Shown here: positions 7,932 through 36,700 of the stretch, piece by piece
Layout: the number at the start of each line of letters is the position of its first letter
How positions within the stretch are numbered: the first letter of the stretch is position 1
IMG/VR virus record: IMGVR_UViG_2512047041_000010
Strand: one strand, 5' to 3'
DNA from: a virus
Taxonomy: Duplodnaviria; Heunggongvirae; Uroviricota; Caudoviricetes
DNA length: 41,896 bases
Position numbers and translations under genes: made by a program
Notes under the pieces: generated by a model
Database searches by the model: none
Seen by the model: only the letters and a program-made list of their open reading frames with translations
What the model was told of the DNA's origin: nothing

Positions 7932-7948
7932 ATTACCTTTCAGGTAAT
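7932..7948. promoter_or_regulatory. operator-like 17-bp palindrome ATTACCTTTCAGGTAAT
   Basis: Perfect inverted repeat of the ATTACC-N5-GGTAAT family, upstream of the LexA box and the small antirepressor-like gene; same core as the site at 27053. Confidence 0.55.
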
Positions 7949-7984
7949 TTGCAAAACGTGCTGGATAGCAAACAAATTATTTGC

Positions 7985-8004
7985 TACTGTATAAATATAC
8001 AGTT
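7985..8004. promoter_or_regulatory. LexA (SOS) box TACTGTATAAATATACAGTT overlapping a putative promoter
   Basis: CTGT-N8-ACAG with an AT-rich spacer, 18/20 match to the E. coli consensus TACTGTATATATATACAGTA; lies 20 bp upstream of the ATG at 8024 and contains a TATAAAT -10-like element. Confidence 0.75.
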
Positions 8005-8023
8005 ATTGCATGGAGAAGATAAG

Positions 8024-8281
8024 ATGCAGCAGTATCACTATCCACTGGAAGACGGATTTACCGAAAGGATTCACACGCCGGGAGGCGTCAGGTCACTGGT
8101 GGAGGGATCGCACTTGATGAAATTACTCCGGGATCTCGATAAGGATGGATTTAATGTCGATGGCCCACTTGCCGAACTGACTGCACTGATTAACTACGTC
8201 ACCAGCTCACAGATGTCTATGCAGGATCTGCAAACACATCTCGACTATTGTGCCGAACAATTACGAAAACAAACCAGATAA
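8024..8281 (+). CDS. small antirepressor-like protein (paralogue of the C-terminal domain of the downstream Bro-N antirepressor), probably SOS-inducible
   Basis: 85-aa ORF with SD GGAGAAG; about 35-40% identity by eye to the last ~70 aa of the 8597..9307 product (shared IHxPxGV, LMxLL, DGxxVxG, QTH blocks); LexA box immediately upstream. Confidence 0.6.
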   Translation: MQQYHYPLEDGFTERIHTPGGVRSLVEGSHLMKLLRDLDKDGFNVDGPLAELTALINYVTSSQMSMQDLQTHLDYCAEQLRKQTR

Positions 8282-8311
8282 GATTTGAAATTACCAATAG
8301 GAGTGCTTATA

Positions 8312-8328
8312 TTTACCTTTGCGGTAAA
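8312..8328. promoter_or_regulatory. operator-like palindrome TTTACCTTTGCGGTAAA
   Basis: Same TTACC-N5-GGTAA architecture; nested inside a larger inverted repeat AGGAGTGC...GCACTCCT. Confidence 0.5.
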
Positions 8329-8360
8329 TTTACATCGCACTCCTCTTGTGCCATAGTAAT

Positions 8361-8440
8361 CGGGCACTGGCAAAATCCAGTGCCGGGATTGGCGTCCCGG
8401 GTTACTAAGTGGCGCATACCACGCCAGACGTGGTTTTTTT
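8361..8440 (+). ncRNA. putative small structured RNA upstream of the antirepressor gene (possibly c4/antisense-type regulator)
   Basis: No ORF; stem-loop GGCACTGG/CAGTGCC, second stem CCGGGA/TCCCGG, then intrinsic terminator CCACG-ccaga-CGTGG + TTTTTTT (8419..8440). Carries ACTAAGTGG, which recurs at the antirepressor RBS, with its complement CCACTTAGG in between. Boundaries are approximate. Confidence 0.3.
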
Positions 8441-8596
8441 ATGCGTTAAGCACAGCTATATCCGAATTATGGTGGGCTGGGCAGGGGTCCGAAAGGACGC
8501 CGGTACCACTTAGGCCGGTACGCCAACCTTGTCCAGTTCACCACCAGTAATTGGCGTTGCGGTGGTGATTAAAATCACTAAGTGGAGATAACCACC

Positions 8597-9307
8597 ATGG
8601 CTAATGCTCAAACTGCCATCTTCAAATTTGAATCTGTTAACCCTATCCGTTCCATCATTATCGATGGCCAACCATGGTTTGTAGCCCAAGACGTTTGTAG
8701 TGCGCTGCGTATCCAAAACGTCACCCAAGCACTTGAAAAACTGGATGATGATGAAAGGTCTATGTTCAACATAGGGCATGAACATCGTGCAATTTTTGAC
8801 AGCCGAGTAAAAGAGATCAACATTATCTCCGAGTCAGGCCTCTACACACTGATCCTCCGCTGCCGCGACGCAGTGACACCAGGCACTACCCCCTACCGCT
8901 TTCGTAAATGGGTTACAGGTGAGGTTCTTCCTCAGATCCGCCGCACCGGAAGTTACATTAAAAACTCGCTCCCGCAGGAAGAGCGCATAAAGATGGTTGC
9001 CGACCAGGTAGCCAGCGCCACAGCATCAGCAGTGATGCAGGCAATGAAGGTAGAGAACAAAACCTACAGCGCCCCGCTGAAGCCCGGCTACCGCAGCCTG
9101 ATTCACTCGCCGTCTGGTGTTCTCGGCCTGACGGAAAACTCACTGCTGATGAATCTGCTGAACCAGTTACAGGAAGACGGGCACGACGTATCGGGCGCGG
9201 CGGCGGAGGTGACCACCATGTTCTGCTACATCGTCGGTGTGAGTAAATGCCTGCGTGATATCCAGACCCACGCGGAATACATCAACGACAAGGCAGGGTT
9301 CTTCTGA
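8597..9307 (+). CDS. phage antirepressor (Bro-N N-terminal domain plus C-terminal Ant domain)
   Basis: Start at ATG 8597, preceded by SD GGAGA; N-terminal FESVNPIRSIIIDGQPWFVAQDVCSAL is Bro-N/KilA-N-like; C-terminus homologous to the 8024..8281 product. Confidence 0.75.
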   Translation: MANAQTAIFKFESVNPIRSIIIDGQPWFVAQDVCSALRIQNVTQALEKLDDDERSMFNIGHEHRAIFDSRVKEINIISESGLYTLILRCRDAVTPGTTPYRFRKWVTGEVLPQIRRTGSYIKNSLPQEERIKMVADQVASATASAVMQAMKVENKTYSAPLKPGYRSLIHSPSGVLGLTENSLLMNLLNQLQEDGHDVSGAAAEVTTMFCYIVGVSKCLRDIQTHAEYINDKAGFF

Positions 9308-9378
9308 CGGGCGGCGGCACAGGGATGTGCCTTTAAATAATTCTGTACAGATTGCAGACTGGGGGTGAATAGCGTACT

Positions 9379-9395
9379 ATTACCTCAAGGGTAAG
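9379..9395. promoter_or_regulatory. operator-like palindrome ATTACCTCAAGGGTAAG
   Basis: TTACC-N5-GGTAA family site about 60 bp upstream of the 9454 start codon. Confidence 0.5.
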
Positions 9396-9453
9396 AAAGC
9401 ATTTTTAATCTTCCCTTCAAAACGCGTCCTGTAGCCAAACATGGGAGGACGAA

Positions 9454-10086
9454 ATGAGAACAAATACAACAAGAAAAGCGATGCCATACATTATCCCAGA
9501 AGCAGATTTCGATAGAAAACTGAACATGTCTGAGAAGAACACTAGTCACACCGAAAGCTACTTAGCGAAAGGTGTGGTTGATTTCGTTCTTCCGGGATTC
9601 ACAACACCTTATGGTTATCGCCTTGTAAAATCTTGTAATGGCGATCATTACAGAATGATTACTACCAGCGATACTCCAGAAACGGTGTATGCGGTTAAGT
9701 TAATCTTTCGGGAAGATATCGTCGAAGCCAAAAGAACATGTACGCAGATCATGGTATGGCGTACGCCTAATGTTATTCATGACCGTGCTGTTCATGGTTT
9801 GCCTCAGATTTTTTTTCAGTTCTTCCTAGAGCAATATGCGATCGTTGTATCTGATGAGCAACAAACAATCGATGGGAGAAGATTCTGGGAAAGAATGATT
9901 TCTTGGGCTATAAACACCCCAGGATATAATGTATACGTTTCAGATGGCTCTGAAGAAGATAGACCTCTTAGCTTCATGACATCATGGGATGATTTCTATA
10001 GCCAGTGGGCTGATTTCTGTTGGGGCAGTGATAAAGATGTGCATACCCACAGACTACTGGTTATAAGCAAAGATAAACTGCATTAA
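9454..10086 (+). CDS. hypothetical protein, 210 aa, no recognisable domain (AT-rich moron)
   Basis: Strong SD GGGAGG 7 nt before the ATG; followed by an intrinsic terminator; lower GC than flanking structural genes; no motif I can assign. Confidence 0.6.
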   Translation: MRTNTTRKAMPYIIPEADFDRKLNMSEKNTSHTESYLAKGVVDFVLPGFTTPYGYRLVKSCNGDHYRMITTSDTPETVYAVKLIFREDIVEAKRTCTQIMVWRTPNVIHDRAVHGLPQIFFQFFLEQYAIVVSDEQQTIDGRRFWERMISWAINTPGYNVYVSDGSEEDRPLSFMTSWDDFYSQWADFCWGSDKDVHTHRLLVISKDKLH

Positions 10087-10090
10087 TAGA

Positions 10091-10113
10091 AGCCCGCAGC
10101 GCGGGCTTTTTTG
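10091..10113 (+). terminator. rho-independent terminator
   Basis: AGCCCGC-agc-GCGGGCT followed by TTTTTT. Confidence 0.75.
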
Positions 10114-10184
10114 TGGACGAAACAAAAGTCAGTGCTACACTCATTGACGCCACATTGAGGTGGCTTATAGATGGAAATTTCACA

Positions 10185-10346
10185 ATGAAAAAAGCATTTG
10201 CTGCACTGTTCGTTTTGTTGTCTCTGGTAGCTTCAACTCAGGCCTTTGCCGGTCGTTGTCAGCACGACAGCGACACTGCTGCTGACGGCTCCCGCTGCGG
10301 TGGGCGTTCTGCGGATTCCCGCCCGGGTGGCGGTGGCATTCGTTAA
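10185..10346 (+). CDS. small secreted protein (53 aa; signal peptide plus ~31-aa Gly/Cys-containing mature peptide)
   Basis: MKKAFAALFVLLSLVASTQAFA signal peptide with AxA cleavage motif; followed by hairpin GGCCGCGAAAGCGGCC; weak SD, so confidence is moderate. Confidence 0.4.
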   Translation: MKKAFAALFVLLSLVASTQAFAGRCQHDSDTAADGSRCGGRSADSRPGGGGIR

Positions 10347-10369
10347 AAACAAGGCCGCGAAAGCGGCCT

Positions 10370-10381
10370 GTGACATGTCAC
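10370..10381. repeat. perfect 12-bp palindrome GTGACATGTCAC (copy 1 of 3)
   Basis: Identical 12-mer also at 28088..28099 and 30353..30364; overlaps the stop codon of the minus-strand lipoprotein gene and abuts a GC hairpin. Confidence 0.8.
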
Positions 10382-10758
10382 GCAACGCAATTATTACCGC
10401 GCCATGTAACATTTTTAATAATCTTATCAGCACCAAACTCAACGTAAACAGAGCAACTGAAATGGAGTGTATAACCGCCATCAGTTGTTGCGTATGTGTT
10501 TGAATATATAGTATTACCAATTAGATTAGACGTAGTATTATACGTTGTGGTTTGTGGTACGTTATAACTACCAGAGCTTGAGTAAACATACACTCTGTTT
10601 CCATCTGGAGATGTAAGCTCTCCCTGAGGATACCCCCACTGCTGAACCATTGCGTCTATACTCTGCCCGCGCCACGTAAGCATATTTCTTTCAAACTGTG
10701 CAGCTGACTGGCATCCAACGAGAAGCATAAATCCAAAAATCAAAAATACTTTTCTCAT
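10378..10758 (-). CDS. phage lipoprotein (possible superinfection-exclusion/entry-exclusion type)
   Basis: Start taken at MRKVFLIFGFMLLVGCQ (lipobox LVGC) with SD AGGGGT; Thr/Ser/Tyr-rich mature part; sits between virion genes and the moron island. Confidence 0.6.
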   Translation of the reverse strand: MRKVFLIFGFMLLVGCQSAAQFERNMLTWRGQSIDAMVQQWGYPQGELTSPDGNRVYVYSSSGSYNVPQTTTYNTTSNLIGNTIYSNTYATTDGGYTLHFSCSVYVEFGADKIIKNVTWRGNNCVA

Positions 10759-10977
10759 AATTACCCCTATCATGGAAAAACAGCACCAATCCACAAATTA
10801 ACTAGTTATTTTATTATTCTTCCGAACAATACAATTCCGAATACTACAAAGCCGAACCATGCCGCTGCACGCAACAGAGATTCCAATTGAAACCCATTTT
10901 TATCAAAATGTATGAATAGCATAAAAACGCTGCACATATTAGTACAATAAAAGTTATTTGAACCATCATATCTCCTT

Positions 10978-13452
10978 TTATTGCGGAGTGACATCCTGTG
11001 GTCGCCACCAGTATGTCTGGTTAAACTCTTTCTTCGAACGTTGCTCCATTTTACGCAAATAGCCTGGTGAAAAATACTCCTGCATCTGGTTAAAGATCAT
11101 GTGATCGAGAGCCGCCTTCAAGTACCAGAGATTCGCACCAGGCATCAAACCTTTCCCCAGCTTCACCAGATCACCACCAGTCTGCTCACTCTTCCCTTCC
11201 ACAGCATTTAACGGTATGCCCTGAGCAATCTTCACTACGTCATCAACCAGACCAGCTACCGGGCCAAGCATCGACGCCAGCGCGCCGCTTCCGTACCTAG
11301 TGTGATCTGACAATAAAAAGTCACCGTAAAGGCCAAGACCACCACCTTTCAGTAGAGCACCAAGCCAGAATTTTGCGGCATCTTCTCCTGTCATCTCTCG
11401 AGGATTACGACCAGACGCAAGGTCGTTAAGTTGCTGCGACAAAGCGCCAAGAATGGTCGTACTGGCAATAAACGTCGCAATATATGCCGCACGCCCACCA
11501 GCAGACGGCATACCCATAGCGCGTGACCAGTGACGCATAACAACCGAGATAGGGAACGATTTAAACAGGAAAACACTTCTCGTTAATTCACCTTTCCATG
11601 TTCCACGCTGAATACCAGAACCGGTTATCAGTTGCTCACGTGCTCCCGGTGTAATAACAGCCATATCAACTTCTTCAGTTACGGCACCGAGCAGTTTACG
11701 CATTGCCTCAAATTTCACGCGTTCAGGCTCACCAAGATGTTTAACTGCTGAATCAGGGATACGCATAATGCTTTCCGGTGTCAGCATCGTATTATTACCG
11801 TTCCCCCAGTCCTCCTGTTTCGCCAGCTTCCATACGCTCCAGTCTGTGTCAGTAATCCCTTTGCTTTTCAGGATACGAAAATCAGAGTCATCGAGGCTAC
11901 GAAGGTCTGGTGTCCGTGACACTACTTCTCCCAGGCTTCCCATCATGGTTACGCCATAGGCGCGCTTGTGCGCATCTGACCATGCTGTAAGCCCACTGGC
12001 ACGCATTACCGCCGTTGCCGCCCAACGAGACACTGACGGCCCCATATTATCCATCGCCCAGCGGTTAACGCTGCCAAGTAGAGATTCCATCGCCAGACCA
12101 GCGCGGCGCGCCCGCGCAAGTTCTGTACGGTTCGTTGGGTCCATAGCTTCAAGCTGGTTGCGGAATAACTGGTTCACTGGAAGGTTGGTAACCTTCGCAG
12201 ACAGATACATGGTTCCAAGATCAGAGAACGATGACAGCAACGCGGATCCGAGTCTGCTGGCAACCAGCCAGTTGCGGATATTGTCAGACCATCGCGCGAT
12301 GTGCGGATTCGCTACAGGCTGTGTCTTTCCGGAAATAAAGTTGTACAGATTCTCTGTGTTGTTCGCCAGCCGCTCGACTTTACCGGTTTTACTCGGGTTA
12401 GCTGTTGCCGTTTCTGCCTTCACCTGATCAAGAAGAGAGCGGAAAACATGATCGGGGTTTGGGCCATATGTTTCCACCAGTGCAATATCTTTACTGATAC
12501 CTTCCAGGTGACCGACCATGATTTCCCATAGAGAGCGATCGCCATAAAGTTGCTGATATTGCAGATAGGAATCTGCATCTTTGAAATGTATCTGTCGTGA
12601 TGCATTACCACGGTTAGCACGTGCGCCGGAAATTCGCATTCCGGTATCAGTAAGCTTATTCAGCCCACCAGTAGCGATCGTGTTATAAGCCTCTCCAAGA
12701 AATGAAGACAACTCGGCATCGTTCATCAGTTGTCCATCGGCTCGGATATAATATTTGCGATCCAGCCTACCTATAACATCGCTAACCCACTTATCCTTTG
12801 ATACTGCCCCAACCTTTTCCATAGAATGATGTTGAGGGATCCCCCAGTTTTCGAGATAGCCAATGTCCCCACCAGCATCATTAAACCGGCGGCGCAGCAG
12901 CTCTGTAACTTCTCTCCACGCCTTAGCACCGTTTCTTGCTTTAGCATTGCCAGTAGTTTGCCCCCGCATTTCATATACCAGGTCACGTACGCCCGCTTCA
13001 TCTTCAAACAGACCAAAAAAGCGAGGATCAACTGCTTCGAATGCCTCCTGCAATTGACTCAATGCATAATCACGGGTGGCTTTTGTTCTGGATTCAACAG
13101 AGAGGAAATTAGATTTACCGTCTGCATTAAAAGCTATAGTACGGTTAAGAGCGCCAAGTTTCCCATCAGCCCCTTGATAGCTATTGATAAATTTATCCAA
13201 TCTCTGACGCGCGGCTATAGTGAGAGCCACACGACGTTTCTTTAATGCCGCTTCTCGCTGTAATTCTTCAGATGCCAATTGTGCTGCTCGATATAGCCGC
13301 TCTGATTCGGAAAGTTGTCGCCACGACATAGGGTCATCACGAGCAATGGAGCGCATATTTCGATAAATGCGGTCTTCAATGTTCTGTATTTCTCGCGCCG
13401 TTAACATGCGCTGCGCCGCCTGCTGAACCGCTTGTATACATTCCTGTCTCAT
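10978..13452 (-). CDS. internal virion/ejection protein (T7 gp16-like position, distal part)
   Basis: 824-aa ORF last in the run of large virion genes; assignment by position in a gp13-gp14-gp15-gp16-like series. Confidence 0.5.
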   Translation of the reverse strand: MRQECIQAVQQAAQRMLTAREIQNIEDRIYRNMRSIARDDPMSWRQLSESERLYRAAQLASEELQREAALKKRRVALTIAARQRLDKFINSYQGADGKLGALNRTIAFNADGKSNFLSVESRTKATRDYALSQLQEAFEAVDPRFFGLFEDEAGVRDLVYEMRGQTTGNAKARNGAKAWREVTELLRRRFNDAGGDIGYLENWGIPQHHSMEKVGAVSKDKWVSDVIGRLDRKYYIRADGQLMNDAELSSFLGEAYNTIATGGLNKLTDTGMRISGARANRGNASRQIHFKDADSYLQYQQLYGDRSLWEIMVGHLEGISKDIALVETYGPNPDHVFRSLLDQVKAETATANPSKTGKVERLANNTENLYNFISGKTQPVANPHIARWSDNIRNWLVASRLGSALLSSFSDLGTMYLSAKVTNLPVNQLFRNQLEAMDPTNRTELARARRAGLAMESLLGSVNRWAMDNMGPSVSRWAATAVMRASGLTAWSDAHKRAYGVTMMGSLGEVVSRTPDLRSLDDSDFRILKSKGITDTDWSVWKLAKQEDWGNGNNTMLTPESIMRIPDSAVKHLGEPERVKFEAMRKLLGAVTEEVDMAVITPGAREQLITGSGIQRGTWKGELTRSVFLFKSFPISVVMRHWSRAMGMPSAGGRAAYIATFIASTTILGALSQQLNDLASGRNPREMTGEDAAKFWLGALLKGGGLGLYGDFLLSDHTRYGSGALASMLGPVAGLVDDVVKIAQGIPLNAVEGKSEQTGGDLVKLGKGLMPGANLWYLKAALDHMIFNQMQEYFSPGYLRKMEQRSKKEFNQTYWWRPQDVTPQ

Positions 13453-13457
13453 TTAAT

Positions 13458-18786: not shown

Positions 18787-21257
18787 CAGAATCCCCCAAC
18801 AGTAAGGCGAGGAATAACGGCAAGAACAGACAGCGGCAACGGATCAAGCTGACGGATTTTTACACGTCCGTTTTTGCCCCAGTTACTGTCCAGTTTCACT
18901 TCTACTTTTCCGGTAGCATCATCAACAGGATCATCGTAGAACTCGAATTCACGCTGTGGATATTCGTACCATTTACCGCCGGGCGTAGTCGCCCAGATGC
19001 CGCGACTGGCATTCACAACCAGAGTAACGGAGGGGATCACCTGTTTTTTGTCCAGCAGCGTTTCCTGTCCGTTAATGTTGATATCCAGTGTTTCGAATTC
19101 AGCAGTTATTGGCAGGCCGATGTGCACTACAGCCCCCGGAGATTCCAGCGTGACGGCACCTCCGGAAACCACTTTCTGTGGTTCCACGTTCGCATCAGAG
19201 AGAATGTTTACGGTCTGGCCTTCAAGATGAGACAGGCCTCCAAATGTCCGGCGCGCCATCTGCCAGTTCGTGGTGGCCACATTCCTAAGGGATGGCGGGA
19301 CGTTCCTGTTAGCACGAACCACTACAGCGGTATTGCTGGTTACAGAAATAATGTCGCAACGTAATTCTTTTGACACCTCATCGCCAGTATCAGGATCAGT
19401 TCCGGTATAAGGGAACTGTAGTTGCGCGCCGACATCACTACTGGTGAAGTACGCACCACCAGAAACACTGATTGTATATTCCGCGCGGTAATCCCATTCG
19501 CCAGAACCACCAGTGATGGTCATCGTTCTGTCAGACGTATTTCTTCCATCATAGCTAAGGCCAGAATCAACAAAGAAAGCATCTTCATCGCTGGTAAATA
19601 AACGGCTGGACAGTCGCTCGATGTATCTCACTGTTTGCCCGTTAACGGTTCGGTTAATGACGAAATACACCGCATCTTCATTGCCTTCGCTGATACTGCA
19701 TGTGCTTTCATATTTTCCGGTACTGGACTGTGGTGCCCATGCAAAAACCTGTTGATCACGCAAATAGGTCATCACCAGTAATTTACCGTCATCACGAATG
19801 CAGAAGGCGCTGGAGTAAGGGACTATCGAGAAGCACCAGTCAACAATGCTGTGCTTCTGAAAAAGATGATTGGCAAGGATGGTCAGGTCGTTCCCCTGAT
19901 AGCCGTCAACATCGAATGAGTAGGCCAGATCACGGACAACGCTGCCTTTCTCCTGGACGAACAGAGCAATATTCGCCACGGCAATTGGCGGGACGTTGCT
20001 TGAGCCATTTGATCCCTGAGAGCTGAATGCAAATGATGATGGGGTTAACACTTTGTTCTGGTCGCCGGTGATGACGTACTCACCTCCGGAAGTCAGCGCC
20101 ACCAGAGAACCAACATCAATCAGGTGGCGGATCTCATTAACCTGACGTCCGGCATAGGTGTAGATAATTCTGTCGTCATCCTGCGTAGGATTGCTTTTGC
20201 CAAAATCCTTATAATCCCCGGTACGGCTGGCCCAGATAGTCTGAGGAAACGCAGTCGATGCGGCGAAGTAAAGACGTTGTTGATAATAAACAACAGTGCC
20301 AGGATAACCATTAACACTGTTCCAGGCATATTTAGCCCATTTATAGCTGGCATTATCCTCGCCCACGACCTGCGAAGGGATATAGGAAATCACCTCGGCA
20401 GTTGCAGTAGTTCCATTTGCAGCAGTGATACGGGCAATGCCAAAACCACTGTGCAGATATTCCCACTCAATGCCAGTATCATCATCACCGGATCCGCCCC
20501 AGCCATCCCATGATGTGCCTTCTGTATGCGAAGGGCGCAAAGTACCTGTTTTGCCTGCTGTAACGGCGCGATAGTAGTTACTGTCTGCACGGCGAATATC
20601 GCCAATCGACGTACTCTTACTGGTTTCCCATACCGGCACAGAATCCACTGCAGGCTGTTCCAGATAGAACAATTTTCCTACCTGCTCCGCGCCAAAAATA
20701 GAGGCGCTTGCCGTTAGCGTAATTGTCCCGGTGCTGGCGCTGGCATAAACCGTCACTGACTCGTCAATATTGATATCTTCAAATGGCCCGTTCTTCGTTA
20801 CCACATCAACCAGTTGCCAGTTGTCATGCGCATAGCGGCGCAACTCTTTCGGCGGGTATGCCGGATGAACCAGCGTAAGCACGTCTGCGCTTTGCGTGAA
20901 TTTAATTCGGAACAGATCGGTTTCAGTATATGGCGTGGAAATTTCATAAATAACATTGCTGCTGTTCAGCACCAACGCACCATCTTTGATAACGCGCATG
21001 TACTGGTGTCCGAACTCCAGAGCATAAGTCTGAACCGTCGAGAACTGGAACGGGATCAGGCGGCATTTCCGATTTGGGTATTTGGCGGCACCGACAAAAC
21101 GCGTACCAGGTCGATTCTCAACTCCGCCATACTGCCGCACGATAAAGTTATCGCACTTGCGCAATGCCACCTGGTACTTCGCCATGTCGATACGACCGTA
21201 CAACGACGGTCCAATCTCACCACCGGCAAAGCTGGGCTGGATCCAACTGATAGCCAT
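18786..21257 (-). CDS. tail tubular protein B / nozzle (T7 gp12-like)
   Basis: 823-aa ORF after the gp11-like adaptor gene; size and order match a podovirus tail tube. Confidence 0.55.
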   Translation of the reverse strand: MAISWIQPSFAGGEIGPSLYGRIDMAKYQVALRKCDNFIVRQYGGVENRPGTRFVGAAKYPNRKCRLIPFQFSTVQTYALEFGHQYMRVIKDGALVLNSSNVIYEISTPYTETDLFRIKFTQSADVLTLVHPAYPPKELRRYAHDNWQLVDVVTKNGPFEDINIDESVTVYASASTGTITLTASASIFGAEQVGKLFYLEQPAVDSVPVWETSKSTSIGDIRRADSNYYRAVTAGKTGTLRPSHTEGTSWDGWGGSGDDDTGIEWEYLHSGFGIARITAANGTTATAEVISYIPSQVVGEDNASYKWAKYAWNSVNGYPGTVVYYQQRLYFAASTAFPQTIWASRTGDYKDFGKSNPTQDDDRIIYTYAGRQVNEIRHLIDVGSLVALTSGGEYVITGDQNKVLTPSSFAFSSQGSNGSSNVPPIAVANIALFVQEKGSVVRDLAYSFDVDGYQGNDLTILANHLFQKHSIVDWCFSIVPYSSAFCIRDDGKLLVMTYLRDQQVFAWAPQSSTGKYESTCSISEGNEDAVYFVINRTVNGQTVRYIERLSSRLFTSDEDAFFVDSGLSYDGRNTSDRTMTITGGSGEWDYRAEYTISVSGGAYFTSSDVGAQLQFPYTGTDPDTGDEVSKELRCDIISVTSNTAVVVRANRNVPPSLRNVATTNWQMARRTFGGLSHLEGQTVNILSDANVEPQKVVSGGAVTLESPGAVVHIGLPITAEFETLDININGQETLLDKKQVIPSVTLVVNASRGIWATTPGGKWYEYPQREFEFYDDPVDDATGKVEVKLDSNWGKNGRVKIRQLDPLPLSVLAVIPRLTVGGF

Positions 21258-26963: not shown

Positions 26964-27031
26964 ATCAATGACTCCGTACGCAATTAAATTATTACCAATT
27001 TAACCACATATGATTTATTTATCGTAGATAG

Positions 27032-27069
27032 TTGACATTTAACGCACAAATTATTACCTTTCAGGTAAC
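27032..27069 (+). promoter_or_regulatory. putative promoter (-35 TTGACA) with overlapping operator ATTACCTTTCAGGTAAC
   Basis: Consensus -35 hexamer at 27032..27037; the operator (27053..27069) covers the -10/+1 region; oriented toward the tRNA. Confidence 0.5.
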
Positions 27070-27390: not shown

Positions 27391-27467
27391 GTGGCATTAG
27401 CTCAGTTGGACAGAGCAACCGCCTTCTAAGCGGTTGGTCGCAGGTTCGAATCCTGCATGCCACGCCA
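27391..27467 (+). tRNA. tRNA-Arg (anticodon UCU)
   Basis: 77-nt cloverleaf: acceptor GTGGCAT/ATGCCAC, anticodon stem ACCGC/GCGGT with loop CTTCTAA, T-arm GCAGG-TTCGAAT-CCTGC, encoded CCA end. Confidence 0.9.
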
Positions 27468-27510
27468 GAATCACGCCTAAGGACCGTGATGCCAGAAGTT
27501 CCAGGGGATT

Positions 27511-27551
27511 GGCGGTGATTTTCCATTGAAGGACTATCACCGCCCTTTTTA
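27511..27551 (+). terminator. rho-independent terminator after the tRNA
   Basis: GGCGGTGAT ... ATCACCGCC stem followed by CTTTTT. Confidence 0.6.
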
Positions 27552-27628
27552 CAGCAGGACGCCATTGCGATGACTTCATGCTGTAAACCAGTACAGCCAC
27601 GGAAGGCATAACTCATTGCTTCCAGTTC

Positions 27629-27652
27629 GCCCGGGTCGCCGGGCATTTTTTT
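27629..27652 (+). terminator. GC hairpin plus U-run immediately upstream of the 27664 start (terminator/attenuator)
   Basis: GCCCGG-gtcg-CCGGGC followed by ATTTTTTT, ending 12 nt before the ATG and adjacent to the SD AAGGTGAG. Confidence 0.5.
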
Positions 27653-29649: not shown

Positions 29650-30242
29650 TGATTACCATCCTGACGTTCTTTGAGTCGCTTCCTGGCTGCTGCTATGCGA
29701 TCAGCAATTGTCACATTCACATTAACATCCAGGCGTTCTTTGAATGCGTTGACGTCGACGTGCTTACCAATCAGTTCGAGGTTCTTCACCTTGTCAGGCC
29801 ATTTAATTTTTTTGAGGATTGTCTCTATCGAATCCTCGTTCATGTTCATGATGGTCGATGACAGATCAAAGCCGCTAAGCGTAGTGCGCCAGATTTTCGG
29901 CCACTCGCGGATTGGCTTAAGGCTCCCATCGTCGTTGAGGATGTCGATCACGTCCATCTGGTCGATCTCCACCAGGCGCATGAGAACGTAATCAGCACTG
30001 ACGCGCATTCGTTTGTTGCGCTCCTCCATCAACTCGGCAATCCGTTTTTGAATGCGTTCATCGCGCATCATGACACTGGCTTTAACTGCCGCTGTATTTG
30101 GGGAGAATCCTGCGTTAATCGCTGCCTGAGTCTGGTTTTCAGGCGTTTTGATGTATGACTGGCAATAAGCCTCCTGCATTGCTGTTAGTGGCTTAAATTG
30201 CGTTGATTTGCGTTTATAGGTTTTAGGTTCAGCAGGCATCAT
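29646..30242 (-). CDS. terminase small subunit
   Basis: Start taken at MMPAEPKTYK with SD GGTGG; DNA-binding-like N-terminus; directly upstream of the large subunit. Confidence 0.65.
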   Translation of the reverse strand: MMPAEPKTYKRKSTQFKPLTAMQEAYCQSYIKTPENQTQAAINAGFSPNTAAVKASVMMRDERIQKRIAELMEERNKRMRVSADYVLMRLVEIDQMDVIDILNDDGSLKPIREWPKIWRTTLSGFDLSSTIMNMNEDSIETILKKIKWPDKVKNLELIGKHVDVNAFKERLDVNVNVTIADRIAAARKRLKERQDGNQ

Positions 30243-30249
30243 AACCACC

Positions 30250-30278
30250 GTGGTAATAGTTACCGTTGTGGTAATAGT
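30250..30278. repeat. direct repeat GTGGTAATAGT x2 in the terminase small-subunit leader
   Basis: Identical 11-mers at 30250..30260 and 30268..30278, between an upstream terminator and the start codon. Confidence 0.6.
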
Positions 30279-30280
30279 AC

Positions 30281-30311
30281 CATGCAAAATAAAGCCGCCA
30301 TAGTTGGCGGC
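30281..30311 (-). terminator. rho-independent terminator upstream of the terminase genes (tR'-like position)
   Basis: On the minus strand GCCGCCA-acta-TGGCGGC followed by TTTATTTTG. Confidence 0.55.
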
Positions 30312-30352
30312 AGTATTCAAAACCCATCAAATTCATCATGCATAATCTACTC

Positions 30353-30364
30353 GTGACATGTCAC
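30353..30364. repeat. perfect 12-bp palindrome GTGACATGTCAC (copy 3 of 3)
   Basis: Overlaps the stop codon of the Cys-rich gene, about 40 bp upstream of the terminator before the terminase genes. Confidence 0.8.
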
Positions 30365-31980: not shown

Positions 31981-31981
31981 A

Positions 31982-32581
31982 TCACTCTCCTTTGATGCGA
32001 ATGCCAGCGGCGCGTGGCACATTAACTTCCACGATGCGCACTGTTGGTTTGTACATCTCAATCGCTGTCAGCCAGTCAGCTCCTGTCATGCGCTTTTCCG
32101 CATCGCCATTAGTCCACTTAACCGGTACACCAATAGCTTTCATCGCGATTTCTATTTCCCCGGCAATGGCGCTTTTTCCGCAACCAGTAAAACCAGATAC
32201 AACGACAAGAACTTCACCTTTGGCTGGTTTTATTTCCCGTGCTTCCAGTTCAGCAATACGCTTACTCCCATCAGAGATAACACCTTCGTAATATTCACGC
32301 TGCTCGTTGAGTTTTGATTTTGCTGCCTCCAGTTCGTCCAGTAGTGCAATCACATCAGGGTCACTGTCATCAACTACTGTTACGCGTGATTTTTCATAAT
32401 GTTCGTCGGCAAGTGTTCGACCAATTTTGAAATCTCCATCACCACCATAACCGGAGCAGGCATAAACGACATGTGCTCCAGATATACGCTGTATTGACAT
32501 TTCCTCGCCACAAACAGAGCATTCAGGTACTGGCTTAGGTGAATAACGTTCCCGTAGCGTCTGATAGTCAATCTTGCTCAC
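31982..32581 (-). CDS. Ead/Ea22-like protein with C-terminal P-loop (Walker A SGFTGCGKS)
   Basis: N-terminus MSKIDYQTLRERYSPKP resembles Ea22-family starts; C-terminal half carries a Walker A motif. Confidence 0.5.
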   Translation of the reverse strand: MSKIDYQTLRERYSPKPVPECSVCGEEMSIQRISGAHVVYACSGYGGDGDFKIGRTLADEHYEKSRVTVVDDSDPDVIALLDELEAAKSKLNEQREYYEGVISDGSKRIAELEAREIKPAKGEVLVVVSGFTGCGKSAIAGEIEIAMKAIGVPVKWTNGDAEKRMTGADWLTAIEMYKPTVRIVEVNVPRAAGIRIKGE

Positions 32582-33108
32582 TGGTTGCCTCCTTTGCGAA
32601 GCTGGGCAGCAAAGTCAACTAACCACTCAGTCATTTCAACCTTCCCTACCAGGTCTGAACCAGGGTGCATACAGCAATCACTCTGCGCCGCTTTGAAAGC
32701 CTTATACTCATATTCTTGGACCACCAGATTTTTTGCAGCTTCTATAGCAGCATCCACCCCCTGCGCCCGCACTTCAGGCAGGAAAGCATCAGTGGCTGGA
32801 ATGGGCTTTTGTGGTGATATAGCAATGCGAATTGTCTCAAGGTCTGGATCTGTTTCCGCTGCTGGCACCTTGATATAACCCATCTGCACCCCATTCATGA
32901 TGAATCTGCGACGGTCATCACATATCGCCTTTAGCCCCGCATTCTCCGCTGCCAGCGCATTAGCACGCACCAGTTGCACTTCCAGTTGCGTTGCCAAATC
33001 GCTGATCAGCTTTGCCACACTGCGCATATCAACGGCACCACATTCTGCTTTCAGTTCCGAAGCCATCTCATGCCCGGCGGCAACTAACCCTTTGATATTA
33101 CTTTCCAT
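32578..33108 (-). CDS. hypothetical early protein (Ea22-region)
   Basis: 176-aa coiled-coil-rich ORF in the early operon. Confidence 0.45.
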   Translation of the reverse strand: MESNIKGLVAAGHEMASELKAECGAVDMRSVAKLISDLATQLEVQLVRANALAAENAGLKAICDDRRRFIMNGVQMGYIKVPAAETDPDLETIRIAISPQKPIPATDAFLPEVRAQGVDAAIEAAKNLVVQEYEYKAFKAAQSDCCMHPGSDLVGKVEMTEWLVDFAAQLRKGGNQ

Positions 33109-33169
33109 CTTTACCCTCGCTTATCCACATAACTTATTGATTACATTGATAACTAAAAAGATCGTCGAT

Positions 33170-33469
33170 TCAGAACTCTTCGATTTTCCAGCCACCACCT
33201 GCTTTCTTTGGCTTAACAGTTACCCCGATGATTCGGAACGGATATTGATCTGCGGCGACTTTGGTTTTCACCCTGGCGTCGTCGGTCCAGAAACCTTTCA
33301 CTTCGTGCAGTTCCATCTCTCCGGTGGCGAGCATCACAGCGAAATCTGGCGTATAGAACGTGTTATCAGCTAACCGCAGCTTGATACCCTCGAATCGATA
33401 CCAGGCGATTTCCCCTGCACGTTTACGCAGCTCAAGGTGCTGGCAATATGCAGATTCTGTTTTGTTCAT
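33170..33469 (-). CDS. DUF1064-like phage protein
   Basis: 99-aa ORF; motif YTPDF...HEVKG recalled as DUF1064; first gene after an internal operator-controlled promoter. Confidence 0.5.
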   Translation of the reverse strand: MNKTESAYCQHLELRKRAGEIAWYRFEGIKLRLADNTFYTPDFAVMLATGEMELHEVKGFWTDDARVKTKVAADQYPFRIIGVTVKPKKAGGGWKIEEF

Positions 33470-33516
33470 CTAGCCTGTTTTGAGTCGACCAAGAGCCTGT
33501 ATCTGTTTTCTCATGA

Positions 33517-33595
33517 TTTACCCCTGAGGTAATTAAAAACCACATAATACACGAAATCAATAGATTTTAGAATATTTTATTACCCAACAGGTAAT
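33517..33595. promoter_or_regulatory. internal promoter region with two operator palindromes (TTTACCCCTGAGGTAAT at 33517..33533, ATTACCCAACAGGTAAT at 33579..33595)
   Basis: Two TTACC-N5-GGTAA sites bracket a minus-strand promoter-like sequence (-35 TTGATT, 17-bp spacer, -10 TTTAAT); a minus-strand terminator (GCGCGATAGCGC + TTTTTTT, about 33596..33625) lies just upstream after the P-like gene. Confidence 0.5.
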
Positions 33596-33631
33596 TATCA
33601 AGACGTAAAAAAATGCGCTATCGCGCTGGTA

Positions 33632-34432
33632 TTACTTGATAAATCCTGCCGCCTTTCCCCGCCTGTATTCCTCCATCAGCCACTGCGCCGGTGTTATTCC
33701 CCCAAGGGTGGCGGCGTTAGGCATGCACCCGAAACTTCGCCCTGGTGGATGGTAAACGTCTCTCCCTGTGTCCGGAGGTGTACTCATGGGCTCTCGCTTT
33801 GCCTGTATGCTGATCACCGGATCGGGTATCTGCTGTCCGGAAGCTACCTTTTTCGCCCAATCATCGAGCAGCCTGCGCGCGTGTTTCTCAACCTCAATCT
33901 CGCTAAGCTGGCGCTGATACATTGCACGGCGGGTATCACATACGACCCAGTACATAACCGGATGTCGCCACGGGAATCTTTCGGGACCACCAGGATATAA
34001 ACTTTTTTCCTTGCTGTACCGGTGAAACTCCGCCATCACATCGTCAATGGTGACGCCAAGAACCATCTTGCTGTCTTTACACCACTTGATGAATTGCCCT
34101 GGCGACGGCCAGAACGGAGACTCACTGGCGCGGGCGTGGCGCATACCAGCAGAAACCTGTTCACGGGTTCGGATCCCCCCTTCGGCAAACGCAGCAATCC
34201 ACTGCTGTTTTGCAGCAACTTCCTGCTCTGGCGTCTTCAGGTTGGTTACCACTGCCGCCGGAAACAGTTGTTTCAGCTGTTTGAAAAGGGCATCAACAAG
34301 CCTCTCTGCTGACATGTTCACCACGTTGTCATTGTTGGTGTACTGATGCTCATAACCTGACATGCGAGAAAGGGCTTCTCCGTCACGGTTTTGTATCGCG
34401 GTAAAAACGTTGTTCACAAGAAATCCTCCCAT
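33632..34432 (-). CDS. replication protein P-like (helicase loader)
   Basis: Block FPAAVVTNLKTPEQEVAAKQQWIAAFAEGGIRTREQVSAGMRHARASESPFWPSPGQFIKWC aligns by eye with lambda P (FPASLANRDQNEVNEIRRQWVLAFRENGITTMEQVNAGMRVARRQNRPFLPSPGQFVAWC). Confidence 0.8.
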   Translation of the reverse strand: MGGFLVNNVFTAIQNRDGEALSRMSGYEHQYTNNDNVVNMSAERLVDALFKQLKQLFPAAVVTNLKTPEQEVAAKQQWIAAFAEGGIRTREQVSAGMRHARASESPFWPSPGQFIKWCKDSKMVLGVTIDDVMAEFHRYSKEKSLYPGGPERFPWRHPVMYWVVCDTRRAMYQRQLSEIEVEKHARRLLDDWAKKVASGQQIPDPVISIQAKREPMSTPPDTGRDVYHPPGRSFGCMPNAATLGGITPAQWLMEEYRRGKAAGFIK

Positions 34433-35229
34433 GCTTCAGGGCTGTTCCAGTGTGGAACGTTGTTATCAGGTAATGTTGATTGCTTCTGTCTGCTAATCTG
34501 CAGCCTCCTTGCCAGCTTCTGCTCCCACTGTGCCTGATGGTATGCCTTACCCTCAGCCATCCAGTAAATTCTGAACTCTGCAAGTTCCTGTGCCGTTGGC
34601 AGACTGTCCAGGTAGATCCCCTGCAATGAGCTTTTCCGAAGAAAGTCATCTGATGGTTGCCATTGTTCATGCATGACAAATTTGCCTAATTGCCCTGGCC
34701 CACCAGGAGGAACAAAGTTATTCATCACGGCGTTGTTTGCGCCGGGGTCATGAGACACAGAATCCCCGTTTTTTGTCCTGCTCTCCCTCTCTTGGTTAAA
34801 TGACTGGTTATATGACTGGTTCTGGATCCCGTTTTTGGGATCATTCAACATCCCGTTTTTGGGATCATTCAACATCCCGTTTTTGGGTATATTCCCGTTT
34901 TCGGTAACATTACCGTTTTCGGGTTCATTACCCCCTTCCCGGTTGCCTTTAATGTTCCCGTTTTTGGTTATATTAAGAGAGAAAACCCGCACTCTTTTCG
35001 TCGCTCCCTTTCTCTCTCCGGTATCTGAAATAAGCCCCATTTTCATGAGCGATATAAGTCCGGCCTGCACGGTTTTTTTATTCAGGCAAGTGTCTTTAAC
35101 GAGGCGTTCTATGCTGGGGTAGCAGAGGTTATATTCATCGGCTCTGTCAGCCATCGAGAGCAGTATGAGCTTTAATGACGAGCTACCTGGATCTGTCTCC
35201 CAGGCCCAATCTGTTGCATGTCTGCTCAT
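34414..35229 (-). CDS. replication initiator O-like protein (contains the origin iterons)
   Basis: SD GGAG upstream; winged-helix-like N-terminus; central Asn/Gly-rich repeats encoded by the iteron array; translationally coupled to the P-like gene. Confidence 0.6.
   Translation of the reverse strand: MSRHATDWAWETDPGSSSLKLILLSMADRADEYNLCYPSIERLVKDTCLNKKTVQAGLISLMKMGLISDTGERKGATKRVRVFSLNITKNGNIKGNREGGNEPENGNVTENGNIPKNGMLNDPKNGMLNDPKNGIQNQSYNQSFNQERESRTKNGDSVSHDPGANNAVMNNFVPPGGPGQLGKFVMHEQWQPSDDFLRKSSLQGIYLDSLPTAQELAEFRIYWMAEGKAYHQAQWEQKLARRLQISRQKQSTLPDNNVPHWNSPEAWEDFL
34760..34975. repeat. origin-like iteron array inside the O-like gene
   Basis: Six to seven copies of TCCCGTTTTTGGGA-type repeats (two identical 24-mers ATCCCGTTTTTGGGATCATTCAAC at 34826 and 34850) plus direct repeat TGACTGGTT x2; arrangement like ori-lambda iterons within O. 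Confidence 0.65.
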
Positions 35230-35244
35230 GATTAATCTCCGCTA

Positions 35245-35445
35245 TCAGCTTGAATGTTGTGGGGAGGAATTAATCATGATCTGCTTAATCTCTGCCCTGA
35301 TACGACGGTTTGATTCCATGGTGCACTCAACACAGTGTCCGTTGTAAACCCAGCGTTCACTGTCATGTCCGTGCTTACATGTTTTTCCGGTGTAGTAGCG
35401 TTTAAGTCCGCGCTTTGCGGCATCAATACGTGTAATGATTTCCAT
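35245..35445 (-). CDS. small zinc-finger protein in cII-equivalent position
   Basis: Start taken at MEIITRIDAAK (SD AGGG); motif CKHGHDSERWVYNGHCVEC; lies between the Cro-like gene and the O-like gene. Confidence 0.45.
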   Translation of the reverse strand: MEIITRIDAAKRGLKRYYTGKTCKHGHDSERWVYNGHCVECTMESNRRIRAEIKQIMINSSPQHSS

Positions 35446-35524
35446 GGTAAGCCCTGTTATTAGTATTGGGATTACGGTCATTTTGTGCTGACACAAAAAA
35501 AAGATCAACCAGATTTGGTTTTTT

Positions 35525-35541
35525 ATTACCTTTGAGGTACG
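35525..35541. promoter_or_regulatory. operator-like site ATTACCTTTGAGGTACG (imperfect)
   Basis: TTACC-N5-GGTA architecture between the terminator after the Cro-like gene and the zinc-finger gene. Confidence 0.4.
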
Positions 35542-35545
35542 AATA

Positions 35546-35573
35546 GATATGAAAAGACCGCCGGGTGGCGGTC
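35546..35573 (-). terminator. rho-independent terminator downstream of the Cro-like gene (tR1-like)
   Basis: On the minus strand GACCGCC-accc-GGCGGTC followed by TTTTC. Confidence 0.6.
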
Positions 35574-35595
35574 TACAGAGGGTTGTAGCTGGATA

Positions 35596-35826
35596 TCATG
35601 AGTAGAAGAAGTATGCCAGTTCTGCTTTTGAGCGCAGCCATTGTCTTGTTTTACAGGCTTTAAAAAGCCCATTCATCAATACTTTACCTGGCATTTTGCG
35701 CTTACCTGTTAAGTGAGTCTGGATATAGTGACTCGTCGTTCCGGCTTCCTGTGCGAAGGCTTCACGCTCATCCGGAGTAAGTGCAAGCCAGTGCTTTTTG
35801 AAATCGAAATGTCCGTTATCGCTCAT
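35596..35826 (-). CDS. Cro-like repressor (YdaS/DUF1019-type HTH)
   Basis: 76-aa HTH protein divergent from the repressor gene across a three-operator region; first gene of the replication-side early operon. Confidence 0.6.
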   Translation of the reverse strand: MSDNGHFDFKKHWLALTPDEREAFAQEAGTTSHYIQTHLTGKRKMPGKVLMNGLFKACKTRQWLRSKAELAYFFYS

Positions 35827-35860
35827 AGCTATTGCCTGATATTTATTTCAGATAATAAAT

Positions 35861-35926
35861 ATTCACCCATAAGGTAACAAAAATCAAGGATAGTTACCTA
35901 TGAGGTGCATTTACCTGTTGGGTAAT
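35861..35926. promoter_or_regulatory. OR-like region: three adjacent operator sites (ATTCACCCATAAGGTAAC, TTACCTATGAGGTGC, TTTACCTGTTGGGTAAT) with divergent promoters
   Basis: Three TTACC-N5-GGTAA-type palindromes (one perfect, two degenerate) between divergent HTH genes; minus-strand promoter-like -35 TTGTTA / -10 TATTAT overlaps the leftmost site. Confidence 0.6.
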
Positions 35927-35980
35927 ATTGCTTTAAATTGAATCATCTACTGATTCATATATGAGGCGATTTTCCAGAAA

Positions 35981-36565
35981 ATGAAAAGTATCCAGGACGT
36001 CCGCAGGCAAAATCTCAACGACTTGATCGACCGTGAATTCAATGGTGTTCAGACGCGGATGGCAGAAAAACTTGGAACTCAGGCAAATCTGGTAAACCGC
36101 TGGGCTCTTGGCAAGAAGGTTATCGGCGACCAGGTTGCGCGAAAAATTGAAGCTGCCGCCAATAAACCACGTAACTGGCTTGATATCGATCGCTCGCTTT
36201 CTCAGGAAGGTTTTCAGCCTGTCGGCCCAAGCGACATTGGTCAGCTGGCGGCTCACAACCTGGAACGCTGGATGAGCGAAAGCCGCGACCTTTCAACACA
36301 GGGAAAACTTCACCGCGCATCCGGCGTCGCCCAGGTGACAATCAGCCGCCTGTTAAACAATGAGGTCAGCGTTTCCATTTCCACCCTGGAGAATGTTGCA
36401 TCCGCATTCGGGCGTCACGGCTATGAATTACTGATTCACCCGCACGACCCTGCGACCATCAACTATGACCGCTCGCGCTACGCATTGTTACCCGAAACCG
36501 AGAAAGCAAAGATCGAAAGTTACATTGAATTTGTCATCAACCAGAACGAAAAAAGCAAAAAATAA
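35981..36565 (+). CDS. CI-like prophage repressor, double-HTH type without LexA-like autocleavage domain
   Basis: 194 aa with two Cro/C1-type HTH segments (QTRMAEKLGTQANLVNRW and GKLHRASGVAQVTISRLL); no Ala-Gly/Ser-Lys peptidase S24 signature; flanked by operator clusters on both sides; own terminator downstream. Confidence 0.6.
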   Translation: MKSIQDVRRQNLNDLIDREFNGVQTRMAEKLGTQANLVNRWALGKKVIGDQVARKIEAAANKPRNWLDIDRSLSQEGFQPVGPSDIGQLAAHNLERWMSESRDLSTQGKLHRASGVAQVTISRLLNNEVSVSISTLENVASAFGRHGYELLIHPHDPATINYDRSRYALLPETEKAKIESYIEFVINQNEKSKK

Positions 36566-36586
36566 AACTATATTTTTCAGTAAGTA

Positions 36587-36610
36587 AGCCGCCTCATGGC
36601 GGCTTTTTTA
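36587..36610 (+). terminator. rho-independent terminator after the repressor gene
   Basis: AGCCGCC-tcat-GGCGGCT followed by TTTTTT. Confidence 0.75.
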
Positions 36611-36621
36611 TTGCCAGATAG

Positions 36622-36700
36622 ATTACCTTACGGGTAATTTTTTTAACTCATATCTATTGACACCAAACCAAATAAGCATAATTATTACCTCAACGGTAAC
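36622..36700. promoter_or_regulatory. OL/pL-like region: operators ATTACCTTACGGGTAAT (36622..36638) and ATTACCTCAACGGTAAC (36684..36700) flanking a promoter (-35 TTGACA at 36657..36662)
   Basis: Perfect and near-perfect TTACC-N5-GGTAA palindromes; consensus -35 with an ATAATT -10 candidate overlapped by the second operator; drives the rightward recombination/integration operon. Confidence 0.6.

Follow-up and report, generated by a model that had tools for sequence, protein, structure and literature searches.

How far across a prophage genome does the direct control of a single immunity repressor extend? The question is raised by a 41,896-nucleotide stretch of viral DNA, IMG/VR record IMGVR_UViG_2512047041_000010 (henceforth termed the window), in which variants of a 17-bp palindrome, ATTACC-N5-GGTAAT, recur between genes. 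A first, sequence-only reading of this DNA had predicted a repressor regulon that reaches beyond the two operator regions known from lambda, OL and OR (left and right operators), to an antirepressor gene, an orphan gene, a tRNA gene and an internal early promoter. Here, we combine motif statistics, comparison with relatives and polymorphism among contigs, and consider it highly probable from these sequence comparisons that the palindromes are the operators of the immunity repressor Rep and make up a dispersed regulon. The idea of a regulon beyond OL and OR is supported, and its extent had been drawn too small: the regulon also takes in terS, and the tailspike and gp3/portal late operons are preceded by the sites at 7932 and 27053.

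Enrichment of a palindromic motif in intergenic DNA

The motif specifies 12 bases, and mismatches were counted against its half-sites. With at most two mismatches allowed, the whole window contains 13 matches, compared with 1.35 ± 1.15 expected from dinucleotide-preserving shuffles, none of which (0 of 100) reached 13. The excess resides in the intergenic DNA of the prophage (3,490 bp), where we counted 12 matches against 0.24 ± 0.49 in 2,000 first-order Markov simulations (maximum 3). Coding DNA (36 kb) holds a single match, at position 4043, which is chance level, and the 13 best matches of a weight-matrix scan are all intergenic. A chance origin of the palindromes is ruled out by the whole-window shuffles together with the simulations at intergenic composition.

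The motif is far from equally frequent inside genes, the outcome that would have refuted the earlier reading, and pattern and weight-matrix scans recovered all 12 sites that the sequence-only reading had enumerated. Its headline figure of 13 sites did not agree with this list, and a tandem pair upstream of terS, at 30241 and 30259, had been overlooked. The 16-mer ATTACCTTTCAGGTAA is identical at 7932 and 27053, as had been noted. Nine of the 14 operator sites lie outside OR and the left promoter (PL). The regulatory gaps of the window yielded no further family of inverted repeats.

Conservation across relatives and selection on the half-sites

The window is a nearly complete Escherichia coli chromosomal prophage of the genus Uetakevirus (phiV10/epsilon15 group). 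Over the immunity region (33400-37000), it shares about 98% identity with phiV10-like E. coli podophages such as PAS61, phiv142-3, phiV10 and ZX5, and a tblastn search with all phiV10 proteins recovered the phiV10 gene order in reversed orientation. The left part contains an attachment (att) core, aatcattcccactcaat, at 2478-2494, identified with the core sequence given in PMC9782041, preceded by E. coli chromosomal DNA (1-2477) with yfgH, yfgI and an IS3-family insertion, while the window stops at the right exactly at the integrase start codon; together these boundaries define the prophage as nearly complete.

We scanned the relatives phiV10, epsilon15, SPC32H, Tyrion and Klebsiella phage BUCT711 for the motif and found it enriched in every one, with, for example, 16 matches versus 1.0 expected in Tyrion and 14 versus 0.76 in BUCT711. 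The GenBank record of epsilon15 (AY150271.2) carries seven 'protein_bind' features labeled "repressor", each a perfect ATTACC-N5-GGTAAT, which are located upstream of terS, upstream of gp3, in the gap between gp19 (ant) and the tailspike gene, at PL (three sites) and at one internal early promoter. The window has sites at all these positions, i.e., terS, gp3, gp19/tailspike, PL and the internal early promoter. The GenBank record of phiV10 is without operator annotation.

Positions common to the relatives are the region upstream of gp3, the ant/tailspike gap, the region upstream of int, PL, OR, the region after cro and the internal early pair. The tandem terS pair, 18 bp apart, is present in the four relatives whose records include the region, and a site downstream of ant is shared with phiV10, Tyrion and BUCT711. 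A site at the lysis genes occurs once each in phiV10, epsilon15, SPC32H and Tyrion and is absent from BUCT711 and from the window, where none was found in 4403-4708. Upstream of int, at about 40-60 bp before the integrase start, all five relatives have a site with two mismatches (consensus ATTACCYTAAAGGTATA; phiV10 locus L001, 26869-26885), of which the BUCT711 copy differs in the spacer. This position lies beyond the right end of the window, and the integrase promoter probably belongs to the regulon as well.

The spacing of the sites is similarly preserved. The operators at PL are 62-63 bp apart across the relatives and those of the internal early pair 62 bp apart in six genomes. In the relatives, OR combines two abutting sites, 17 bp apart, with a third, the abutting pair being seen in epsilon15, SPC32H and BUCT711. 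In six-genome alignments of PL and the internal early promoter, the invariant positions are the operator half-sites, a CTATTGA block at the -35 region and the -10 element, while the operator centers and other spacer positions vary.

To look at selection within one lineage, we compiled 77 non-identical phiV10-like IMG/VR contigs (from loci L007-L086) and compared the operators between 33517 and 36700. Among the half-site positions, 9 of 96 are polymorphic, with a mean divergence of 0.010, which is below that of coding DNA (0.016) and of other intergenic DNA (0.033). The half-sites are the most constrained non-coding positions of the region and are under purifying selection; 74-77 contigs retain those at 33517, 33579 and 35525. 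The 5-bp operator centers show the opposite behavior: 23 of 40 positions are polymorphic, and their divergence of 0.131 makes them about four times as variable as ordinary intergenic DNA. Affinity tuning, recombination and a mutational hotspot are candidate causes of these hypervariable centers.

These data bear on the view that only the sites at OR and PL function and that the remainder are relics or chance palindromes in AT-rich intergenic DNA. Several dispersed sites do carry one or two mismatches and lack a tool-supported promoter, and the site at one cargo gene, ORF210 (open reading frame of 210 amino acids), decays in some relatives. Yet 12 intergenic sites where 0.24 are expected, the synteny of dispersed sites across phages with diverged flanking sequence and the conserved half-sites at 33517, 33579 and 35525 make this view very improbable. 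The existence, enrichment, position, conservation and selective constraint of the palindromes, together with the homology of the proteins discussed below, are direct observations.

Placement of the operators at early, cargo and late promoters

At PL, the promoter scan found the promoter-like sequence TTGACA-17-AATTAT (36657-36685, plus strand), the -35 element of which is kept in six genomes. The proximal operator (36684-36700, one mismatch) overlaps its -10/+1 region such that the final two bases of the -10 element are the first two of the operator, and a perfect distal operator (36622-36638) is located exactly 62 bp away. The internal early promoter, which precedes the DUF1064 gene and its downstream neighbors, repeats this arrangement on the minus strand: -35 TTGATT (33555-33560) and -10 TTTAAT (33532-33537) are separated by a 17-bp spacer, with the proximal operator at 33517-33533 (one mismatch) and the distal one, without mismatches, exactly 62 bp from it at 33579-33595.

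Related configurations occur at three further positions. Downstream of ant, the scan-supported promoter-like sequence TTGAAA-17-TATATT (8285-8313, plus strand) overlaps with its -10 element the operator TTTACCTTTGCGGTAAA (8312-8328), which has two mismatches and is itself a perfect TTTACC/GGTAAA palindrome; equivalent sites exist in phiV10 (20496), Tyrion (21392) and IMG/VR contigs. The weak promoter of ORF210 (9454-10086, plus strand) is composed of TTGCAG (9352-9357), a 17-bp spacer and TACTAT (9375-9380) and overlaps the operator ATTACCTCAAGGGTAAG (9379-9395, one mismatch); the promoter scan made no call for 9352-9380. At the rightward tRNA-Arg/ORF139 promoter, the -35 TTGACA (27032-27037) is followed by a -10 TACCTT (27055-27060) contained within the operator ATTACCTTTCAGGTAAC (27053-27069, one mismatch), and epsilon15 keeps the TTGACA-17-TACCTT arrangement and has a syntenic 'repressor' site at 2931-2947. 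Promoter overlap, which the sequence-only reading had claimed for all sites, is backed by the scan at 8312, 36684, 35862 and 33579; at 9379, 27053 and 33517 it rests on weaker hexamers read by eye and on cross-genome conservation.

The late units differ. Their -35 regions are poor, and a conserved CATATGTGGTT(T/A) element and a half-site are preceded by a full operator. Between the divergent tailspike (4709-7828, minus strand) and ant (8024-8281, plus strand) genes, the perfect operator ATTACCTTTCAGGTAAT (7932-7948) is found about 60 bp upstream of the ant start, syntenic with the epsilon15 'repressor' site 19895-19911. Located 50 bp from it, a pseudo-operator with the GGTAAT half only (7882-7898, minus strand) adjoins the conserved CATATGTGGTTT element of the tailspike promoter. 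Likewise, the operator at 27053 doubles as the distal site of the leftward gp3 promoter: a half-site pseudo-operator 62 bp away (26991-27007, minus strand) belongs to the gp3/portal late promoter and adjoins CATATGTGGTTA. The CATATGTGGTT(T/A) element itself occurs on the minus strand at 4462-4473, 7892-7903, 27001-27012 and 33537-33548, just upstream of the -10 regions of the lysis, tailspike, gp3/portal and internal early promoters, and has been retained in epsilon15, SPC32H and phiV10. Candidate roles are those of a late-promoter element or an activator binding site.

The proximal member of the terS tandem (30241-30257, one mismatch) ends 2 bp before the terS ATG (30239). The distal member (30259-30275, one mismatch) follows at the 18-bp spacing, just past a terminator hairpin (30294-30311), and is equivalent to the epsilon15 'repressor' site 12-27. 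A phiV10-style TTG start of terS (30320) would enclose the hairpin and both operators; the more plausible start is the ATG at 30239, which corresponds to the start annotated in epsilon15. A further operator-like site (35525-35541, two mismatches), syntenic with sites in phiV10, epsilon15, Tyrion and BUCT711, comes right after the cro terminator (35555-35574) and precedes p42 and the replication genes. Within the DnaT-like replication gene, tandem iterons at 34793-34932 comprise 2.6 perfect copies of ATCCCGTTTTTGGGATCATTCAAC followed by 18-bp CCGTTTTCGGG repeats; by analogy with lambda O, they are probably the phage replication origin.

OR occupies the gap between the repressor gene rep and the divergent cro-like gene. 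A weight-matrix scan placed three sites there with spacings of 31 and 17 bp. The site nearest cro (35862-35878, three mismatches) falls within the spacer/-35 region of the predicted right promoter (PR), TTGTTA-17-TATTAT (35880-35852, minus strand; promoter scan). The middle site, GTTACCTATGAGGTGCA (35893-35909), is degenerate with four mismatches and abuts the site nearest rep (35910-35926, one mismatch), which is invariant in the 77 contigs. Between these operators and the rep start codon, the perfect 6-N5-6 palindrome GAATCATCTACTGATTC (35940-35956) shows operator-like geometry with another half-site and occurs as a single copy in the window. We considered this sequence, GAATCA-N5-TGATTC, as a second operator family and rejected it as a singleton at chance frequency.

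Candidate ligands of the palindrome

The gene rep (35981-36565, plus strand) encodes a 194-amino acid repressor with two helix-turn-helix (HTH) domains. Residues 1-190 match the crystallized Rep of SPC32H (PDB 5D50 chain A, expectation value E = 3e-42), and the C-terminal domain matches 5D4Z. Pfam assigned HTH families only and detected no S24 peptidase (LexA-like) domain in Rep. The two half-sites of the palindrome are one helical turn apart, which suits two HTH domains on the same face of the DNA. SPC32H Rep is described, in a secondary account, as a tetramer that binds palindromic DNA and is disassembled by tetrameric Ant (PMC9638917). For ZX5, the repressor of which is reported to be sequence-identical to that of phiV10, over-expression of the repressor abolished free phage and reduced holin and endolysin transcripts by more than 99.9% (PMC9782041). 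The phiV10 repressor is 99% identical to Rep of the window.

How can one consensus serve the whole genus, given that the repressors have diverged? Relative to the epsilon15 lineage, Rep is 53% identical over its N-terminal and 38-39% over its C-terminal domain. Despite an overall identity of 43%, the helix segment NLVNRW is invariant in the Rep proteins of five of five genus members, and this constancy of the recognition helix accounts for the common consensus. As a negative control, Pseudomonas phage PseuP_224 encodes a cI protein with a related N-terminal domain and a different helix, and the motif is absent from this phage. The 80 IMG/VR loci listed are all at least 99% identical to the query, too uniform for helix and motif to co-vary, and served the polymorphism test described above.

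The invariant helix also weighs against a host transcription factor, conserved in Enterobacteriaceae, as the ligand of the palindrome. Such a factor would explain why phages of E. coli, Salmonella, Klebsiella and Enterobacter carry the same consensus, why the motif is identical although the repressors share only 43% identity, and why the lambdoid siphovirus Escherichia phage LLS, in which tblastn matches included no Rep homologue, has one good site before an ORF210 homologue. However, the tripartite OR is positioned exactly between rep and cro with no other repeated palindrome family there, and we know of no E. coli factor with an ATTACC-N5-GGTAAT consensus. LLS is otherwise not enriched (5 matches versus 1.2 expected, four of them poor), so that acquisition of one cassette by horizontal transfer suffices to explain its site. 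We regard a host factor as the ligand as scarcely credible.

A more serious candidate is the 76-amino acid Cro-like protein (35596-35826, minus strand; PHROG 35 'transcriptional repressor', E = 6e-13). It is 58-84% identical across the genus and keeps the segment AGTTSHYIQ[T/V]HLT, the AGTTSHYIQ core of which is invariant. In lambdoid switches, Cro and CI share operators, and a putative sharing of the palindromes could make the Cro-like protein an equally important or even the main ligand. It would then shut off early transcription during lytic growth via the sites overlapping -10 elements and might activate late transcription in a class I-like manner from 50-70 bp upstream, a notion encouraged by late promoters that combine a weak or non-conserved -35 region, the conserved CATATGTGGTT element and an upstream operator. 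Set against this, the epsilon15 annotation and the work on SPC32H assign operator binding to Rep, and activation from the late-promoter positions is pure inference. We hold this alternative to be possible but clearly the less probable one, and continue with Rep as the preferred ligand.

A proposed circuit for lysogeny and induction

Rep bound at an operator overlapping the -10 element and the transcription start would exclude RNA polymerase by virtue of this overlap, as repressors bound at -10/+1 occlude the polymerase. This design would apply to PL and to the internal early, isrK/C4/Bro::Ant, ORF210 and tRNA/ORF139 promoters. At PL and the internal early promoter, the second operator lies 62 bp upstream, i.e., about six helical turns, and this phasing in conjunction with a tetrameric Rep suggests cooperative binding of Rep tetramers. 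The three OR sites between rep and cro would act as the switch, with the 35893/35910 pair towards rep. For the terS, gp3/portal, tailspike and post-cro sites, the mode of action would probably be cooperation with weak proximal half-sites, or that of roadblocks. In the lysogen, nearly every transcription unit would be held off directly by Rep. Binding at individual sites, looping, roadblock action and feedback are features that we infer.

Induction would start from the SOS-type control element in front of ant. A LexA box, TACTGTATAAATATACAGTT (7985-8004, plus strand), lies immediately 5' of ant and overlaps the predicted ant promoter region; no second match exists in the window, where chance predicts 0. 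The gene ant encodes an 85-amino acid protein that matches the SPC32H antirepressor (PDB 5D50 chain E, E = 4e-47, 88% identity), and this small LexA-controlled Ant would disassemble Rep. The sequence-only reading had assigned the role of antirepressor to a Bro-N gene (8597-9307, plus strand). The antirepressor of SPC32H type is encoded by the 85-amino acid gene ant instead, and the Bro-N gene is a Bro-N::Ant-C fusion (Pfam Bro-N at residues 17-112; residues 155-231 match SPC32H Ant, E = 3e-13) and, judged by this homology, a candidate second antirepressor. In phiV10, the counterpart of Bro::Ant is split into p23 and p22, and that copy looks disrupted.

Two RNAs precede the fusion gene, and both, like the gene itself, lie downstream of the operator-bearing promoter 8285-8313. 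The first is an isrK-family Hfq-binding small RNA (8364-8440, plus strand; Rfam RF01394, 67.7 bits, threshold 50) that ends in an intrinsic terminator (8418-8434). The second, upstream of Bro::Ant, is a C4-type antisense RNA (8465-8548, plus strand; Rfam RF01695, 66 bits, threshold 45). By analogy with P1 immI or Gifsy-1 IsrK, the tandem of isrK and C4 suggests control of the second antirepressor at the RNA level. Release of Rep would derepress this Rep- and C4-controlled Bro::Ant, which could create positive feedback.

Several observations weigh against this account. The Cro-like protein, conserved to at least the same degree as Rep, is a possible main or shared ligand at some sites. A full operator centered about 50-70 bp before the likely start, as found at the late promoters and ant, does not occupy a classical position for repression, and no convincing promoter was found at 35525 or at the terS pair. 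The promoters at 9379, 27053 and 33517 fall below the scan threshold, and the ORF210 operator is decayed in some relatives. The drop of more than 99.9% in lysis transcripts upon repressor over-expression could be indirect.

A more far-reaching proposal would have one operator family run the whole temporal program, with micro-loops, positive use of late sites, mobile operators and tuned centers. In such a scheme, a single Rep tetramer may bridge each 62-bp pair in an unusually tight micro-loop, and the Cro-like protein may use the late-promoter sites positively. Cargo operators may travel between phage families, such that the Rep of a Uetakevirus residing in the same host could act in trans on a moron of another prophage, and the hypervariable centers might tune affinity promoter by promoter. 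As a combined explanation, we judge this unlikely.

Operator-bearing cargo and neighboring genes

The dispersed operators extend to cargo genes. A tRNA-Arg (UCU) gene (27391-27467, plus strand) is located downstream of the 27053 promoter/operator, at the same place where SPC32H has an annotated tRNA. The phiV10 gene 'p04' maps to this region (27400-27646, minus strand) only as two frame-shifted pieces, antisense to the tRNA; p04 is probably not a real gene, and SPC32H annotates the tRNA there instead.

In TL-2011b, the promoter and operator of the ORF210 slot are retained with other cargo, and among other Uetakevirus contigs the ORF210 operator is kept in some and decayed in others. The LLS homologue of ORF210 (84% amino acid identity; L089 42020-42772, L088 530-660) is preceded by TTGGCT-17-TACTAT and the palindrome ATTACCCAGAAGGTAAA, the sole good motif copy of that phage, with the same -10/operator junction as in the window. 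The ORF210 cassette and its operator seem to have moved as one unit. The sequence-only reading had stated that every moron promoter carries an operator. This was too broad: a small signal-peptide moron at 10186-10346 lacks one, and the ORF210 operator is decayed in several relatives.

The protein encoded at 10186-10346 belongs to a PHROG of the moron category ('membrane associated protein'), and its gene is flanked by terminator-like hairpins. An accessory lipoprotein-like ORF follows at 10381-10761 (minus, late strand). Searches of Pfam and PADLOC gave no assignment for ORF210, ORF139, ORF77 and the 138-amino acid lipoprotein-like ORF, which matched only PHROGs of unknown function. In the host flank (1-927 and 953-2166), yfgH encodes a glycine-zipper lipoprotein and yfgI a DUF5384 protein, and the IS3-family element (orfA/orfB, with a frameshifting ALIL pseudoknot at 1234-1350) is inserted directly after the DUF5384 ORF.

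Implications and comparison with known systems

Prophages of the phiV10 type are very common in E. coli, and IMG/VR contains at least 300 relatives of the window's Rep. For this group, the present work provides an evidence-graded operator map. It suggests that in these phages one repressor acts directly to silence almost all transcription units, among them those of a second antirepressor, a tRNA and a cargo cassette. If so, "morons" with operators would be lytic-phase genes rather than lysogenic-conversion genes. The map also makes several ideas testable: the 62-bp spacing as a signature of Rep-tetramer cooperativity, lock-in of induction via a Rep-repressed second antirepressor, and the use of the late-promoter sites.

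The system resembles lambda in its 17-bp pseudo-palindromes, the tripartite OR between divergent repressor and cro genes and the multiple operators at PL. The contrast that the sequence-only reading had drawn is correct: in lambda, operators occur only at OL and OR and CI is cleaved with RecA, whereas the operators of the window are spread genome-wide and Rep, which lacks a peptidase domain, would be inactivated by an antirepressor. The arrangement is not new, as it is already annotated in epsilon15.

Dispersed operators are also known from phage P1, in which C1 operators occur genome-wide, including Op51 at the immI c4-icd-ant operon, and are asymmetric; P1 is a plasmid prophage. As proposed for the window, one repressor of P1 directly controls many scattered operons; among these is an antirepressor operon with a C4 antisense RNA, and the window has a C4-family RNA. 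The sites described here differ in being palindromic, Rep is unrelated to C1 in sequence, and induction would proceed via the LexA-controlled Ant. The stoperators of mycobacteriophages L5 and Bxb1 are asymmetric, orientation-dependent and located in transcribed regions. They share with our sites the large number outside the immunity region, and the 35525 and terS sites are possible roadblocks; unlike L5 stoperators, the sites of the window are palindromic and mostly overlap promoter hexamers. Antirepressor modules are represented by Gifsy-1 IsrK/AnrP and P22 immI. As in these, an isrK-family small RNA lies upstream of a Bro-type antirepressor gene, but here the unit starts at a Rep-operator promoter, and the C-terminal domain of the antirepressor is a paralogue of SPC32H Ant.

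The closest counterpart is the Rep/Ant switch of epsilon15 and SPC32H, and judged by sequence homology the system of the window is this switch in the phiV10 lineage. The consensus is the same, the sites are syntenic, Rep and Ant are homologous, a LexA box precedes ant, and the operator spacings of 62, 17 and 18 bp recur. The motif annotation of epsilon15 and the structural solution of the Rep/Ant mechanism in SPC32H mean that these elements were already known. A literature text search with the motif string returned only unrelated primer matches, and one for SPC32H with 'operator' only secondary mentions. The parts that appear to have been unannotated so far are the 14-site map of the phiV10 type, the 62/17/18-bp spacings, the hypervariable centers, the Rep-controlled isrK/C4/Bro::Ant unit and the operator on a mobile cargo cassette. 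The window further differs from epsilon15 and SPC32H in carrying the phiV10 allele of Rep, from epsilon15 in having two rather than three PL operators, and from both in its additional operator-bearing promoters for isrK/C4/Bro::Ant and ORF210.

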